IMG/VR virus record: IMGVR_UViG_2671180427_000005
Strand: one strand, 5' to 3'
Source: a virus
Lineage: Duplodnaviria > Heunggongvirae > Uroviricota > Caudoviricetes
DNA: 5,480 nucleotides
In this document: in pieces, positions 1 through 5,480 of the stretch
Layout: each line of letters starts with the position of its first letter
Numbering within the stretch: position 1 is the first letter of the stretch
Notes under the pieces: model-generated
Told to the model about the DNA's origin: nothing
Database searches by the model: none
The model's input: the letters and a program-made list of their open reading frames with translations, nothing else
Translations under genes and position numbers: made by a program

Positions 1-294
1 GCAGCCGGTGGTTTTTCTGCCACCACGATGCTGTTTTCACTGGGGGCCAGCATGATACTGGGTGGTGTGGCTCAGATGCTTGCCCCGAAGGCTAAAGTAC
101 CGGAGTACAAAAGCACGGATAACGGTAAACAGAACACGTACTTTTCCTCGCTGGATAACATGATTGCCCAGGGGAACCCGATGCCGGTGCCTTACGGTGA
201 AATGCTGGTTGGCTCCCGGCGAATCTCTCAGGACATCAGTACCCGTGATGAAGGCGGTGGCGGGAAGGTCGTGGTTATCGGGCGGCAGAGGTAA
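1..294 (+). CDS. I: Tail assembly protein I, C-terminal part (5' end lies upstream of the window)
   Basis: Frame 1 is open from base 1 to TAA at 292-294. The translation (...MLFSLGASMILGGVAQMLAPKAKVPEYKSTDNGKQNTYFSSLDNMIAQGNPMPVPYGEMLVGSRRISQDISTRDEGGGGKVVVIGRQR) closely matches the C-terminus of lambda gpI as I recall it. Its position directly upstream of J fits lambda gene order. Confidence 0.85.
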   Translation, partial: AAGGFSATTMLFSLGASMILGGVAQMLAPKAKVPEYKSTDNGKQNTYFSSLDNMIAQGNPMPVPYGEMLVGSRRISQDISTRDEGGGGKVVVIGRQR

Positions 295-334
295 AAAGAA
301 TAAAAAAATCCCGCAGTGTTGCGGAGCTGCGGGA
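295..334 (-). terminator. Intrinsic (rho-independent) terminator for leftward transcription
   Basis: Inverted repeat CCCGCAG (310-316) / CTGCGGG (327-333), extendable to 8 bp with T309/A334, around a 10-nt loop. On the minus strand the stem is followed by UUUUUUUAUUCUUUUU (complement of 295-308). On the plus strand the stem is followed by GAGTTACG, so it is unidirectional (leftward). Confidence 0.5.
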
Positions 335-393
335 GAGTTACGAAGATTAACTATAGAGAATTATTCTTATGTCACGACAAAAAACATTAACGC
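301..393 (-). ncRNA. Candidate small non-coding RNA (about 90-95 nt) in the I-J spacer; hypothetical
   Basis: Bounded by a candidate minus-strand promoter (400-427, predicted start near 393) and the minus-strand terminator (295-334). No ORF longer than 12 codons with a ribosome-binding site on either strand. Predicted RNA: 5'-GCGUUAAUGUUUUUUGUCGUGACAUAAGAAUAAUUCUCUAUAGUUAAUCUUCGUAACUCUCCCGCAGCUCCGCAACACUGCGGGAUUUUUUUAU-3'. Boundaries are inferred, not measured. Confidence 0.3.
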
Positions 394-399
394 AGAGAA

Positions 400-460
400 A
401 TTATTAGCGCCACAGTCAGTTTGTGAAAATGTGAAGATATTCAGAATTTTTATTCAGTCA
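400..460 (-). promoter_or_regulatory. Candidate sigma70 promoter on the minus strand with upstream A/T-rich tract
   Basis: Read on the minus strand: -35 TTCACA (complement of 422-427, 5/6 to TTGACA), 16-bp spacer, -10 AATAAT (complement of 400-405, 5/6 to TATAAT). An A/T-rich UP-like tract lies upstream (complement of 441-460, TGACTGAATAAAAATTCTGA). No equally good hexamer pair was found on the plus strand in 295-465. Confidence 0.35.
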
Positions 461-464
461 TGAT

Positions 465-496
465 ACAGGCATCCTCCGGGATGCCTGTTGTTTTTG
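465..496 (+). terminator. Intrinsic terminator for rightward transcription, 34 bp upstream of the J start
   Basis: Perfect 9-bp stem CAGGCATCC (466-474) / GGATGCCTG (479-487) with tetraloop TCCG, followed by TTGTTTTTG (488-496). The minus-strand reading has no U-tract after the stem, so it is unidirectional (rightward). Confidence 0.6.
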
Positions 497-529
497 TGCG
501 TAACAGTTATCACAGTAAAGGGTGAGACA

Positions 530-3500
530 ATGGGCAAAGGTGGCGGCAAGGCGCACACGCCGGTAGAGGCAAAGGACAATCTTAAGTCCACGCAGATGAT
601 GAGCGTGATTGATGCCATTGGTGAAGGGCCGATTGAAGGTCCGGTGAAGGGGCTGCAGAGTATCCTGGTGAACAAAACCCCGCTGACGGACACGGACGGC
701 AATCCTGTGATACATGGTGTGACAGCGGTCTGGCGCGCCGGGGAGCAGGAGCAGACACCACCTGAAGGCTTTGAGTCCTCCGGGGCGGAAACCGCACTGG
801 GCGTGGAAGTGACGAAGGTAAAGCCGGTGACGCGCACCATTACGTCCGCGAACATTGACCGCCTGCGGGTCACCTTCGGGGTGCAGTCACTGTTGGAGAC
901 CACCTCAAAGGGCGACCGTAATCCCTCTTCTGTCCGACTGCTGATTCAGTTGCAGCGTAACGGTAACTGGGTGACGGAAAAGGATGTCACCATTAACGGC
1001 AAGACCACCTCACAGTACCTGGCGTCGGTGATTCTGGAGAATCTGCCTGAGCGGCCCTTTAACATCCGGATGGTCCGGGAGACAGCGGACAACACCTCGG
1101 ACCAGCTGCAGAATAAGACGCTCTGGTCGTCATACACCGAAATCATCGATGTGAAACAGTGCTACCCGAACACGGCGATTGTGGGGTTGCAGGTGGATGC
1201 GGAGCAGTTTGGCGGTCAGCAGATGACGGTGAACTACCATATCCGCGGTCGCATCATCCAGGTACCGTCAAACTATGACCCGGAAAAACGCACGTACAGC
1301 GGCATCTGGGACGGCAGCCTGAAACCGGCATACAGCAACAACCCGGCCTGGTGCCTGTGGGACATGCTGACTCACCCGCGCTACGGCATGGGAAAACGTC
1401 TGGGGGCGGCAGACGTGGACAAATGGGCGCTGTATGCCATTGCGCAGTACTGCGACCAGACGGTCCCGGATGGTTTCGGAGGGACAGAGCCGCGGATGAC
1501 CTTTAATGCGTACCTGTCACAACAGCGTAAGGCGTGGGACGTTCTCAGTGATTTCTGCTCGGCGATGCGCTGTATGCCGGTATGGAACGGCCAGACGCTG
1601 ACGTTCGTTCAGGACCGCCCGTCGGATGTGGTGTGGCCGTACACCAACTGCGATGTGGTGGTGGATGATAACGGCGTGGGGTTTCGCTACAGCTTCAGCG
1701 CCCTGAAGGACCGCCACACGGCGGTGGAGGTGAATTACACCGACCCGCAGAACGGCTGGCAGACCTCCACGGAACTGGTGGAAGACCCGGAAGCCATACT
1801 GCGCTACGGGCGCAACCTGCTGAAGATGGATGCGTTCGGTTGCACCAGTCGCGGTCAGGCCCACCGTGCCGGGCTGTGGGTGATAAAGACCGGACTGCTG
1901 GAAACGCAGACGGTGGATTTCACGCTCGGGTCACAGGGGCTGCGTCACACACCCGGTGACATTATTGAAATCTGTGATAACGACTATGCCGGGACCATGA
2001 CCGGCGGACGTATCCTGTCCATCGATGCCGCCAGCCGCACCCTGACACTGGACCGTGAGGTGACCCTGCCGGAGACAGGTGCCGCCACGGTGAACCTGAT
2101 TAACGGCAGCGGTAAGCCGGTGAGCGTGGCCATCACTGCACACCCCGCGCCGGACCGGATACAGGTCAGCACCCTGCCTGATGGTGTGGAGACATACGGT
2201 GTATGGGGGCTCTCCCTGCCGTCACTGCGTCGTCGCCTGTTCCGCTGTGTCTCCATCCGGGAAAACACGGACGGCACCTTTGCCATCACGGCGGTGCAGC
2301 ACGTACCGGAAAAAGAAGCCATCGTGGATAACGGGGCCAGCTTTGAGCCGCAGTCAGGCACCCTGAACAGCGTTATTCCACCGGCAGTGCAGCACCTGAC
2401 GGTGGAGGTGAGCGCGGCTGACGGTCAGTATCTGGCACAGGCGAAATGGGACACGCCGCGGGTGGTGAAGGGTGTGCGCTTCAGTCTGCGCCTGACCAGT
2501 GGAAGCGGTGAAAACAGCCGCCTGGTGACCACCGCCATCACCGCAGACACGGCGCACCGTTTCAGTGGCCTGCCGCTCGGGGAATACACCCTGACAGTCA
2601 GGGCAATTAACAGTTATGGCCAGCAGGGCGAACCGGCCACCACCACCTTCCGGATTAACGCGCCAGCAAAACCCGCCACCATTGAACTGACGCCGGGGTA
2701 TTTTCAGATAACGGCGGTCCCGCGTCTTGCGGTGTATGACCCGACGGTACAGTTTGAGTTCTGGTTTTCGGAGACAAAAATCGCAGACACATCTCAGGTG
2801 GAAACCTCTGCCCGTTATCTGGGGACCGGCAGTCAGTGGAGTGTATCCGGCCCGCACATTAAGCCCGGGAAGGATTTCTGGTTTTACGTGCGCAGCGTCA
2901 ACCTGGTGGGGAAATCTGCGTTTGTGGAAGCCAGTGGCCGGGCCAGCAATGATGCAGAAGGGTATCTGGGGCTGTTTCGGGAAAAAATAGGAAAACTGCA
3001 TCTGGCTCAGGGGCTGTGGGAGCTGATAGACAACAGCCAGCTTGCGGATGAGATGGCGGAGATGAAGACCACCATCACCGAAACCCGCAATGAAATCACA
3101 CAGACGGTCAACAAAACACTGGAGAACCAGAGCGCCACCATACAGCAGATACAGCGCGTGCAGAAGGACACAAATGATGACCTGGCTGCACTTTACATGC
3201 TGAAGGTACAGAAAACAAAAAATGGCATACCCTATGTTGCCGGTATTGGAGCGGGGATTGAGGATACTGATGGCCAGCCACTGAGCAACATACTGCTGCT
3301 GGCTGACTGTATCGCGATGATAAATCCGGAGAGCGGCAACAGCACTCCGTTATTTGTGGCGCAGGGGAATCAGCTGTTCATGAACGACGTGTTCCTGAAA
3401 CGACTGTTTGCGGTGAGCATCACCTCGTCCGGCAATCCCCCAGCATTTTCCCTGACGCCGGAAGGAAAGCTGACGGCAAGGAACGCGGATATCAGCGGAG

Positions 3501-4006
3501 CAATTACCGCGAATACCGGCACGCTCAATAATGTCACCATTAACGAGAACTGTGTCATCAGAGGGAAACTGTCTGCAAACCAGATTGAAGGCGACCTGGT
3601 GAAGACGGTGGGGAAAGCCTTTCCCCGGAATAACAGTTATGCCAGCGGTACGGTAACCGTCACAGTTTACGATGACCATGGCTTCGACCGGCAGATTATC
3701 ATTCCCCCGGTGCTGTTTCGCGGGACGAAACACCAGAATTTCAACAGCCCGAATCAGCAGTCGTACTGGTATTCCACCTGTAAGCTACAGGTGCTGAAGA
3801 ACGGGGTTGAGATTTTCCATGAACCGGCAACGGATGTCAGCCGGGTGTTCTCATCGGTGATAGATATGCCGGCAGGGCGGGGTCATGTCACCCTGACGTT
3901 TAATGTGTCGTCGGCCGGTGCGAACAACTGGACGCCGACAACGTACATCAGTGATTTACTGGTTGTGGTCATGAAAAAATCCACGGCAGGGATCAGTATC
4001 AGCTGA
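530..4006 (+). CDS. J: Host specificity protein J (tail tip / central tail fibre), 1158 aa
   Basis: ATG at 530 preceded by a Shine-Dalgarno-like AAGGGTGAG (518-526); stop TGA 4004-4006. The N-terminus [39 protein letters not shown]... matches lambda gpJ ([22 protein letters not shown]...) as recalled. There is long collinear similarity including fibronectin-III-like repeats (about 2380-2940) and the conserved ...[19 protein letters not shown]... C-terminal block. The track's TTG at 488 is an upstream in-frame artefact that begins inside the terminator hairpin. Confidence 0.95.
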
Positions 4007-4025
4007 CGGTTTATTAACCCGGACG

Positions 4026-4049
4026 GGCACCTCAGGAGGTGCCTTTTTT
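4026..4049 (+). terminator. Intrinsic terminator downstream of J
   Basis: 7-bp stem GGCACCT (4026-4032) / AGGTGCC (4037-4043), loop CAGG, followed by TTTTTT (4044-4049). It starts 20 bp after the J stop. Confidence 0.7.
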
Positions 4050-4074
4050 ATTGACTGAAAACAAAGAGGTAATC

Positions 4075-4698
4075 ATGCGGCATTTATACGCAACGATATT
4101 ATTGTTTACTACCCTGCTGGCAGGAATTGCCTTTCCTGCACAGGCTGAAAGCGGACACGGTGCATTTTCCGTGGGATATGCTCAGGTTCACCCGGGCGGC
4201 GTACCGGCATTGTCCGGTACCGGTGCGCGTGCAGGTGATTTAAAAGGGATTAATGTGAAATACCGTTATGAGTTCACGGATCACCTGGGCGGCATTGTCG
4301 CGCTGAGTTATGCATCGGTGAAGAAAAGTGACACGATGCAGACGGGTGAAAATACCTTCCATTATGAAAGCCTGCGCGGTCGTTATGTCAGTCTGATGGC
4401 CGGCCCTGTCTGGCAGCTCAGTGAGCGGGTCAGTCTCTATGGCATGGCCGGGATGGCGTACACCCGCTGGTCTGACAGTGTTCAGGATTACCGGCGTGAT
4501 GAAGTGAAACCGGGGTATGTGAAGGAGACCACCACCGCCAGTGATGGTCATACTGCGCGTCATCTGTCGCCGGCCTGGAATGCCGGGATTCAGTTCAGTC
4601 CCGTAGAGACGGTGGTTATTGACCTTGCTTATGAAGGTTCCGGCAGTGGCGACTGGCGCACTGACGGGTTCATCGTGGGTGTTGGCTATAAATTCTGA
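4075..4698 (+). CDS. lom: Lom outer-membrane protein (Ail/Lom/PagC/OmpX family 8-stranded beta-barrel), 207 aa; prophage moron
   Basis: ATG at 4075 with Shine-Dalgarno AAGAGG (4064-4069) 5 nt upstream; stop TGA 4696-4698. Predicted signal peptide MRHLYATILLFTTLLAGIAFPAQA with cleavage after AQA. The mature protein is collinear with lambda Lom (conserved GINVKYRYE, FHYESLRGRYVS, AYEGSGSGDWRTDGFIVGVGYKF with C-terminal Phe). The track's GTG at 4039 lies inside the J terminator hairpin and is rejected. Confidence 0.9.
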   Translation: MRHLYATILLFTTLLAGIAFPAQAESGHGAFSVGYAQVHPGGVPALSGTGARAGDLKGINVKYRYEFTDHLGGIVALSYASVKKSDTMQTGENTFHYESLRGRYVSLMAGPVWQLSERVSLYGMAGMAYTRWSDSVQDYRRDEVKPGYVKETTTASDGHTARHLSPAWNAGIQFSPVETVVIDLAYEGSGSGDWRTDGFIVGVGYKF

Positions 4699-4762: not shown

Positions 4763-5480
4763 ATGGCAGTAAAGATTTCAGGTGTACTGAAAGACGGTAC
4801 AGGAAAACCGGTAGAGAACTGCACCATTCAACTGAAAGCCAGACGGACCAGCAGCACGGTGGTGGTGAACACGGTGGCCTCTGAAAATCCGGATGAAGCC
4901 GGTCGTTACAGCATGGACGTTGAGTACGGTCAGTACAGCGTCATTCTGTTGGTGGAAGGATTCCCGCCATCACATGCCGGAACAATCACAGTGTATGAAG
5001 ATTCTCAACCCGGTACGCTGAATGATTTTCTCGGTGCCATGTCGGAGGATGACGTCCGGCCGGAGGCACTGCGTCGTTTTGAACTGATGGTGGAAGAAGC
5101 GGCGCGTAACGCAGAGGAGGCGAAGAAGAATGCCGGAGAGGCGGAGACATCAGCGAGGAATGCCGGCATATCAGCCAGTCAGGCAGAAGAGAGCGCTGCA
5201 AATGCTGACACTTCAGCAGGGGATGCATCGGAGTCAGCCCGGCAGGCGGCAGAAAGTGCAGCCGCTGCAAAGCAGTCAGAGGAGGCGTCCTCGTCCTCGG
5301 CCTCTGCGGCCGCTCAAAAAGCCAGTGAGTCATCACAAAGTGCAGCAGATGCTGAATTGTCAAGAAAGACGGCAGAAAGTGCAGCCGGTAATGCAGCCAG
5401 GGATGCAACGACCGCAACAGAAAAAGCCCGGGAGTCAGCAGAAAGCGCACAGTCAGCGGAACAAAGCAGGATAGCGGCGG
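4763..5480 (+). CDS. stf: Side tail fibre protein Stf, N-terminal part (continues beyond the window's 3' edge)
   Basis: ATG at 4763; frame 2 is open to the end of the window (last complete codon ends at 5479). It is missing from the ORF track only because it has no stop in the window. Translation MAVKISGVLKDGTGKPVENCTIQLKARRTSSTVVVNTVASENPDEAGRYSMDVEYGQYSVILLVEGFPPSHAGTITVYEDSQPGTLNDFLGAM... matches the conserved N-terminus of lambda Stf (orf-401) as recalled, followed by an Ala/Ser/Glu-rich low-complexity region. Confidence 0.85.
   Translation, partial: MAVKISGVLKDGTGKPVENCTIQLKARRTSSTVVVNTVASENPDEAGRYSMDVEYGQYSVILLVEGFPPSHAGTITVYEDSQPGTLNDFLGAMSEDDVRPEALRRFELMVEEAARNAEEAKKNAGEAETSARNAGISASQAEESAANADTSAGDASESARQAAESAAAAKQSEEASSSSASAAAQKASESSQSAADAELSRKTAESAAGNAARDATTATEKARESAESAQSAEQSRIAA

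Follow-up and report, generated by a model that had tools for sequence, protein, structure and literature searches.

Late genes of lambdoid prophages and Stx phages depend on antitermination by Q (PMC7547250), and Q-modified polymerase from pR' resists terminators (PMC7547250, introduction). Among the intrinsic terminators that such polymerase is expected to override are those of the tR' / 6S RNA / StxS system (PMC7547250). Late operons of phages also harbour morons, cassettes consisting of a promoter, a gene and a terminator (Juhala et al. 2000, summarised in PMC3594210). Small RNAs have been described from the same surroundings. PasB, an 83-nt Hfq-dependent sRNA of prophage PP6 in EPEC strain E2348/69, is encoded between E2348C_1436 and E2348C_1437 (PMC8550237, table S6); its Northern probe is AATCCCGCAGTGATCGCGGAGCT (PMC8550237), and its level is higher in the non-activating than in the activating condition (PMC8550237). 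EcOnc22, EcOnc23 and EcOnc24 of EHEC Sakai are about 85 nt long and destabilised without Hfq, with a probe that begins GGGAGAGAACGATGAAGATTAAC (PMC4104026, tables S2 and S3).

The stretch of DNA analysed here, 5,480 nt of a tailed phage (IMG/VR record IMGVR_UViG_2671180427_000005) and referred to below as the window, carries a hairpin followed by a U-tract at 465-498, between the tail genes I and J (Table 1). By analogy with lambda, this element is probably a Rho-independent-type terminator, internal to the operon at the I/J boundary, that Q-modified polymerase would read through and that would stop unmodified polymerase. It appears to be the local version of a hairpin and U-tract that mark the pre-J boundary in lambda-like and T1-like siphophages. 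As such it is of a well-known, ordinary kind, a new member and not a new mechanism, and the sRNA next to it has already been published. With the tR' system it shares the property of being an intrinsic terminator that Q-modified polymerase is expected to override; tR' stands directly 3' of an active promoter and gives rise to an abundant sRNA, whereas neither a promoter nor a short transcript is apparent 5' of 465-498.

The I-J junction and its leftward sRNA

The hairpin is set among lambdoid late structural genes, on their coding strand, with I and J on either side and an Ail/Lom-family gene after J. I and J are separated by 235 bp. The ATG of J, at 530-532, is in the frame of ORF 488..4006, which stops at 4006, and its product has the Pfam domains Ig_J, FNIII-A_GpJ, Phage-tail_3, Phage_Tail_Tip and Ig_GpJ_C. 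Two overlapping ORFs 3' of the Lom-like gene, 4986-5450 on the minus strand (154 aa) and 5130-5474 on the plus strand (114 aa), gave no Pfam match. The close relatives in which the hairpin was seen belong to the lambdoid prophages and the Stx phages. Junctions almost the same as this one are present in Stx-converting phages and in prophage Sp15 of Sakai, annotated as lambda-like, where the hairpin is on the minus strand at about 2,902,741-2,902,764 of NC_002695.2. A second terminator-like hairpin, beyond J, corresponds in position to the one between J and lom in lambda, in a gap that mirrors that of lambda; it overlaps the GTG mechanically assigned as the start of the Ail/Lom-family ORF.

Table 1. 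Coordinates of the features discussed; positions are those of the window unless a locus or genome is named
Feature	Position	Strand	Basis or remark
Tail assembly gene I, 3' part	1..294	+	ORF list; stop codon 292-294; homologous places are 'tail assembly protein' in RefSeq
Leftward sRNA gene, PasB/EcOnc22-24 member by sequence	302..393	-	PasB/EcOnc probes; 5' end predicted only
Leftward sRNA terminator	stem ~334..309, T-run ~308..303	-	terminator scan
Predicted sigma-70 promoter of leftward sRNA	400..427	-	TTCACA-16-AATAAT, 10/12 matches
CRP-consensus-like palindrome	427-448	.	AAATGTGAAGATATTCAGAATT; 2 mismatches in 16 specified bases; 0.01 expected by chance
21-codon upstream ORF	ATG 460 to TGA 525	+	crosses the hairpin, stops 4 nt before the J ATG
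Terminator-type stem-loop	465..488	+	ACAGGCATCC / UCCG loop / GGATGCCTGT; 10 bp, 6 G-C pairs
U-tract	489..498	+	TGTTTTTGTG, 7 U in 10
J leader	499..529	+	Shine-Dalgarno-like AAGGGTGAG; one of at least 4 unrelated leader classes 3' of the same hairpin
J, tail-tip attachment / host-specificity protein, 1158 aa	530..4006	+	ORF and Pfam
Second terminator-like hairpin	4025..4052	+	just past J stop; GGGCACCT-CAGG-AGGTGCCT then TTTTTATT
Ail/Lom-family gene	4039-4698	+	directly after J
Antisense lipoprotein-like ORF (MKCKIIAAIAMLTAASCG...)	L008 about 840-1400	-	
Sense lipoprotein-like ORF	L135 284-634	+	
Sense lipoprotein-like ORF	L304 100-645	+	
95-aa ORF	L240 379-666	+	ATG overlaps stop codon of I
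Lambda D-E gap hairpin	lambda 6099-6116	sense	
Lambda E-FI gap hairpin	lambda 7163-7180	sense	
Lambda I-J gap hairpin	lambda (NC_001416) 15461-15484	sense	
Lambda J-lom gap hairpin	lambda 18920-18935	sense	
Lambda lom-stf gap hairpin	lambda 19612-19633	sense	

The leftward unit of the spacer is, judged by its sequence, a member of the published PasB/EcOnc22-24 family. Both the Northern probe for PasB and the terminal 33 nt at the 3' end of that RNA align to window 333..302 at 94%, and the genes that flank PasB, E2348C_1436 and E2348C_1437, are annotated in RefSeq as tail assembly protein and gpJ. The EcOnc22/23/24 probe, for its part, has its match in the Sp15 I-J spacer on the strand that reads from I to J; the Sakai sRNA, too, therefore runs antisense to the tail genes. 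Sakai has copies in Sp15, Sp14 and Sp11. PasB and EcOnc22-24 make up one family, a kinship that neither PMC8550237 nor PMC4104026 appears to remark upon. Within the leftward sRNA only the terminator and the GAAGATTAAC block are well conserved, the 5' half having diverged from that of E2348/69 PasB, and a search of Rfam at E ≤ 1 gave no match in the spacer. At the place of the window's AATAAT, E2348/69 has TATAAT. Upstream of the sRNA promoter, between it and the hairpin, the CRP-like site lies within the best-conserved block of the spacer; its TGTGA-N6-TCAGA core is invariant in four aligned junctions and its centre is at about -44.5 from the predicted sRNA start, the ideal being -41.5.

Two other assignments were rejected. 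HnrS (EcOnc10-12), which is multicopy in late genes, was considered as the spacer RNA and maps between the lysis and terminase genes. The published peak coordinates of EcOnc22 raised the idea that it lies on the hairpin itself; they refer to NC_002695.1, whose offset from version.2 we infer to be about 128 bp, and the Northern probe puts EcOnc22 on the PasB-like body. A further observation concerns nucleotides 11-21 of E2348/69 PasB (ACAAAAACAAC), which are complementary to GTTGTTTTTGT in the U-tract region, window 487-497 (11/11, E 0.14); for the sRNA of the window, G·U wobbles would allow its tract, CAUAAGAAUAAU, to pair with this region. Since the A-rich tract resembles the (ARN)n motif of Hfq, this complementarity is probably a low-complexity coincidence.

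Structure and conservation of the hairpin

On the plus strand, 465-498 reads ACAGGCATCC-TCCG-GGATGCCTGT and then TGTTTTTGTG. The stem, closed by the UCCG loop, is perfect and is followed on its 3' side by UGUUUUUGUG; with the closing A-U pair open, the U-tract becomes UUGUUUUU, with seven U in eight. In a terminator scan, 465-488, with 10 pairs (six of them G-C) and a 4-nt loop, has the longest stem among the window's eight terminator-like sites. The hairpin alone has a folding energy of -18.8 kcal/mol, and with its flanks it reaches -19.9 kcal/mol (z = -4.64), a value matched by none of 200 shuffles. Directly 5' of the stem lies an AU-rich single-stranded stretch, 449-464. The minus strand continues past the stem as ATCATGAC, with no T-run, and the hairpin is therefore unidirectional, in the sense of J. 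The element thus combines the features by which intrinsic terminators are recognized, namely a G+C-rich stem of 5-15 bp, a short loop, and a U-tract on the sense strand only.

An earlier note, made from the letters alone, had described a strong intrinsic terminator pointing rightward within the late tail operon, immediately 5' of J; a terminator-type hairpin of that strength, direction and position is confirmed. The perfect 9-bp stem that it described is the same helix, from which it had omitted the closing A-U pair; and the position just 5' of J is right, the distance from base 496 to the J start codon at 530 being 33 nt where the note gave 34 bp. The pattern alone is not rare, in that eight terminator-like sites in the window compare with 4.6 +/- 2.3 in shuffles. 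What lifts this hairpin above chance is its conservation, the structure-preserving nature of its substitutions, and its recurrence at the same position in other phage lineages.

For conservation we used a homologous set of 80 IMG/VR loci whose J N-terminus is 93-100% identical to that of the window. Most of them carry the same hairpin, which is found 5' of at least four unrelated J leaders; the earlier note had counted lack of conservation in homologous I-J junctions as grounds for abandoning the hairpin, and most of the junctions have it. Across 12 distinct homologous variants, 98.3% of the stem cells are standard pairs, a share that falls to 33-47% with slid 3' partners. In pair 8, C-G and U-A alternate, and pairs 1 and 9 undergo changes from A-U to G·U and from C-G to U·G. 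The wobbles of pairs 1 and 9 pair only in plus-strand RNA, the minus strand having A·C mismatches, which points to selection as J-sense RNA. Covariation is thin, with one double-sided change only, and the observed pairing score was reached by 8 of 500 shuffles; at such low variation, the data are supportive of a helix maintained as plus-strand RNA, but not strongly so. A run of 4-5 T is kept in every homologous variant.

In 18 of 79 window-type junctions no terminator was scored. Fourteen of these have an antisense lipoprotein gene (MKCKII...) between the 3' part of the sRNA and J, and no hairpin within 150 nt of J. In two others, L032 and L034, the hairpin, ACAGGCACCC-TCCG-GGATGCCTGT, is chimeric, and its stem contains a C·A mismatch. 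As the hairpin is missing from this minority of junctions, it must be dispensable. In L032 and L034 a left arm of Sp15 type is joined to a right arm and leader of window type, a mixture that indicates a recombination breakpoint inside the hairpin.

The pre-J position in other phages and the contents of the I-J gap

In lambda the equivalent hairpin is AAACCGCC-TGCG-GGCGGTTT plus TGTC, 24 nt before the J ATG, in an I-J spacer of 60 bp that has no sRNA gene. The two hairpins are on the same strand and in the same place, 3' of I with 20-65 nt left to J; each is built of a G+C-rich stem, a tetraloop and a U-tract and stands in the late tail-gene block. They have no detectable sequence homology, and that of lambda is unannotated. 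The window's has 10 bp and -18.8 kcal/mol, compared with a score of -15.2 for the lambda stem, of whose 10 pairs only five are G-C. Unlike lambda, the window has about 175 bp with an sRNA gene inserted between I and the hairpin; for both hairpins function is inferred. HK446, which is HK022-like, has GGCCACC-TTCG-GGTGGC plus T6-7 before J, and mEp043 has AAAGGTGC-TTCG-GCAC plus T7, abutting the J ATG; mEp043-type loci present at least seven different stems plus T6-7 at this same place. In Klebsiella phage KLB29, whose J is 40% identical, the annotators marked a terminator immediately 5' of the J ribosome-binding site; a query of viral contigs with the KLB29 J found no relatives. A literature search for a described terminator between I and J returned nothing specific.

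We surveyed about 80 loci per lineage for a plus-strand terminator-like site within 120 nt 5' of J, with coding windows as controls. Such sites were present in 61/79 window-type loci (controls 6/243), in all 79 lambda-type loci (14/264), in 78 of the 80 HK446-type loci (43/472) and in all 78 mEp043-type loci (39/349), the control rate being 2-11% across the four surveys. In the lambda late operon itself (L331), every true intergenic gap of more than 20 nt has a sense-strand hairpin with a T-run (Table 1), which assigns the pre-J hairpin to a common class. Beyond the lambdoid phages, virulent T1-like JMPW2 (L332 290-375) and Tls-like Sephi301i (L337 281-370) carry AACCCGC..GCGGG plus T6-8 right after I, followed, about 10-15 nt past the terminator and still within the I-J gap, by a TATAAT or TACAAT box. 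To judge from these motifs, the gap of T1-like and Tls-like phages looks like a true operon boundary, and J may begin a separate transcription unit. In three virulent J-bearing phages (a Webervirus, a Dhillonvirus and a Lanavirus) I and J overlap and no hairpin was found.

The hairpin and the leftward sRNA vary independently. In many E. coli genomes the similarity to the window covers 280-453 and breaks off at 453/454; locus L033, for example, keeps the sRNA and the CRP-like site as far as TTTTTAT (window 452) and continues with another segment that has a different hairpin. Strain 90-3040 matches only window 425-496, its sRNA body having diverged; L001 keeps the hairpin beside a diverged sRNA body. 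Lambda, HK446 and mEp043 have the equivalent pre-J hairpin and no leftward unit. The spacer is that of PasB/EcOnc22-24, and the published probes match its leftward unit; the hairpin, however, is no part of that gene or family, since it is on the opposite strand (hairpin plus, sRNA minus 393..302) and upstream of the sRNA promoter, and each of the two occurs without the other. This disposes of the notion, put forward in the earlier note, that the hairpin belongs to the module of the leftward unit: three phages have a hairpin without the unit, and a large class of junctions retains the unit up to 453 and replaces the hairpin. The same note's picture of an insulated spacer survives in part. The spacer is bracketed by the leftward terminator (334..303) and the rightward hairpin, and with terminators at both edges, transcription that starts inside it would be unable to leave either way; the hairpin, on the other hand, is resident at the junction and not in the insert.

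The I-J gap is, on comparison of these loci, a recurrent slot for accessory genes, with a terminator nearly always kept at its J-proximal edge. The inserted sense ORFs of L135, L240 and L304 end right at the pre-J hairpin, giving a layout of accessory gene then terminator. In HK022, the I and J homologues are numbered gp21 and gp24, implying two genes between them. The arrangement shares with moron architecture an independently transcribed accessory unit in the I-J gap and a terminator before the next essential gene, and in L135, L240 and L304 a sense ORF that is directly followed by the pre-J hairpin. It differs in that the window's accessory unit runs antisense and is closed at its far end by a terminator of its own, so that the pre-J hairpin is not its terminator. 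Moreover, because the pre-J hairpin is also present in 'empty' junctions, it looks resident, not imported with an insert. This comparative pattern is of use in annotating prophage spacers; it delimits the PasB/EcOnc22-24 module, whose right edge would be at about window 453, and helps in designing sRNA deletions that spare tail-gene expression.

Possible roles of the hairpin

As an operon-internal terminator, the hairpin would act as follows. Polymerase unmodified by Q would release its transcript in the U-tract (490-498), before reaching J; this would apply to any polymerase starting inside the late region of a repressed prophage, for example at accessory-gene promoters between I and J or, divergently, within the AT-rich DNA that holds the promoter of the leftward sRNA. 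In the lytic cycle, polymerase arriving from pR' with the Q modification would pass through; Q and pR' lie outside the window, and read-through is taken over from established lambda biology. The hairpin would keep J strictly Q-dependent and would close the right edge of the I-J gap, and this closure may be why the gap tolerates accessory inserts, here a leftward sRNA of the PasB/EcOnc22-24 type, elsewhere a sense or antisense lipoprotein gene. Carried in the read-through late mRNA, it may in addition protect the upstream tail-gene segment from 3' exonucleases. A promoter scan of the window gave no rightward match 5' of the hairpin, and the polymerase to be stopped in the lysogen is thus hypothetical. 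The homologous I and J show almost no expression in EPEC lysogens (baseMean 4.8 and 15, as against 482-1082 for PasB), and silent tail genes beside an expressed PasB fit insulation but do not prove it. A terminator here would explain the silence of J and the Lom-type gene in the lysogen in spite of an active sRNA promoter about 100 bp away.

The alternative that fares best, tentative in our estimation and compatible with a terminator, is a role at the level of RNA. As an intercistronic stem-loop in the Q-antiterminated late transcript, the hairpin might block 3'-to-5' exonucleases, thereby stabilising the tail-gene segment 5' of it, or mark a processing site, and in this way fix how much of the upstream tail proteins is made relative to J. 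Should Q-modified polymerase disregard the hairpin, any role in lytic growth would indeed be post-transcriptional, and retention of such an element among lytic genes suggests a use of this kind. That lambda has hairpins with T-runs in all its late-operon gaps, including those after D and E, which encode the most abundant proteins, points the same way, as does the AU-rich single-stranded 449-464 ahead of the stem. An exonuclease barrier, however, has no need of a U-tract, yet this is always kept; the T1-like phages combine the hairpin with a downstream promoter-like box, as would be expected of real termination; and I is not an abundant protein.

The terminator reading can be extended into a broader proposition that we consider unlikely as a whole. 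Hairpin and U-tract before J would form a boundary element of ancient origin that J-type siphophages actively maintain, whose stem turns over while its position is kept; as a ready-made terminator it could make the I-J gap a safe landing pad for accessory genes, sRNAs and lipoproteins among them, and in some lineages, where U7 abuts the ATG and there is no Shine-Dalgarno, it could also be part of the J initiation signal. In L088 (about 415-446) and in mEp043-type L251-L330, the hairpin and 6-7 T do stand directly against the J ATG (e.g. GGCACCTTTTTTTATG), with no Shine-Dalgarno, an arrangement which suggests that the mEp043-type lineage tolerates or uses an unusual context for starting J translation.

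Translation might instead govern the stem itself, with a ribosome on the 21-codon ORF melting it and being handed over to J, as in an attenuator or a translational coupling device. We hold this to be quite improbable. It is true that the ATG at 460 is kept in all variants, that the frame is uninterrupted in four unrelated leader classes and ends near the J start or overlaps it, and that lambda, read by eye, has an analogue that opens with TGATG on the stop codon of I and closes with a TAA overlapping the start of J. No Shine-Dalgarno precedes ATG 460, however, and in HK446-type and mEp043-type junctions the hairpin is not traversed by an ORF of this kind; by a rough estimate, four open frames would arise by accident with a probability of ~0.05-0.1, and the nucleotides are too conserved for a test of selection at the codon level. 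The ORF is probably incidental.

Nor do the data favour a plus-strand RNA with its 3' end at the hairpin, a possibility raised in the earlier note. Here the hairpin would serve as the terminator and Hfq-binding 3' module of an sRNA, either transcribed from a promoter divergent from, and near, that of the leftward sRNA or cut from the 3' end of I mRNA. About 40 nt 5' of the stem are highly conserved, and the succession of U-rich stretch, hairpin and poly-U tail resembles an Hfq-binding module. The conserved block is better explained by the CRP-like site and the promoter-upstream region of the leftward sRNA, the scan showed no plus-strand promoter-like site, Rfam gave no match, and the junctions of lambda, HK446 and mEp043 leave no room for such a gene. 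At the Sakai junction the Hfq-CRAC list has the antisense sRNA only, with no plus-strand signal, and there is no I-J intergenic entry among the RIL-seq rows listed; absence from these lists is weak evidence against a plus-strand sRNA. Taken with the rest, it leaves this origin highly improbable.

The least probable reading makes of the hairpin a DNA operator, an inverted repeat belonging to the sRNA module and bound by a dimeric regulator of the leftward promoter, as its perfect 10-bp palindrome with a 4-bp spacer some 70-95 bp upstream of the predicted sRNA start might suggest, but the G·U-type changes break the DNA palindrome and keep the plus-strand RNA helix, the loop grows from 4 to 6 in E2348/69, the T-run is conserved, and equivalent hairpins occur without the sRNA as does the sRNA module without this hairpin.

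A last observation concerns the stretch from the hairpin to the J GTG in Sp15-type leaders (e.g. L026, L083 and L085), which contains a 7-nt unit, CAGACAT, in a variable number of tandem copies (ATTCAGACATCAGACAGG versus ATTCAGACATCAGACATCAGACATCAGACAGG); the copy number shifts the distance from hairpin to start codon from about 50 to 65 nt.
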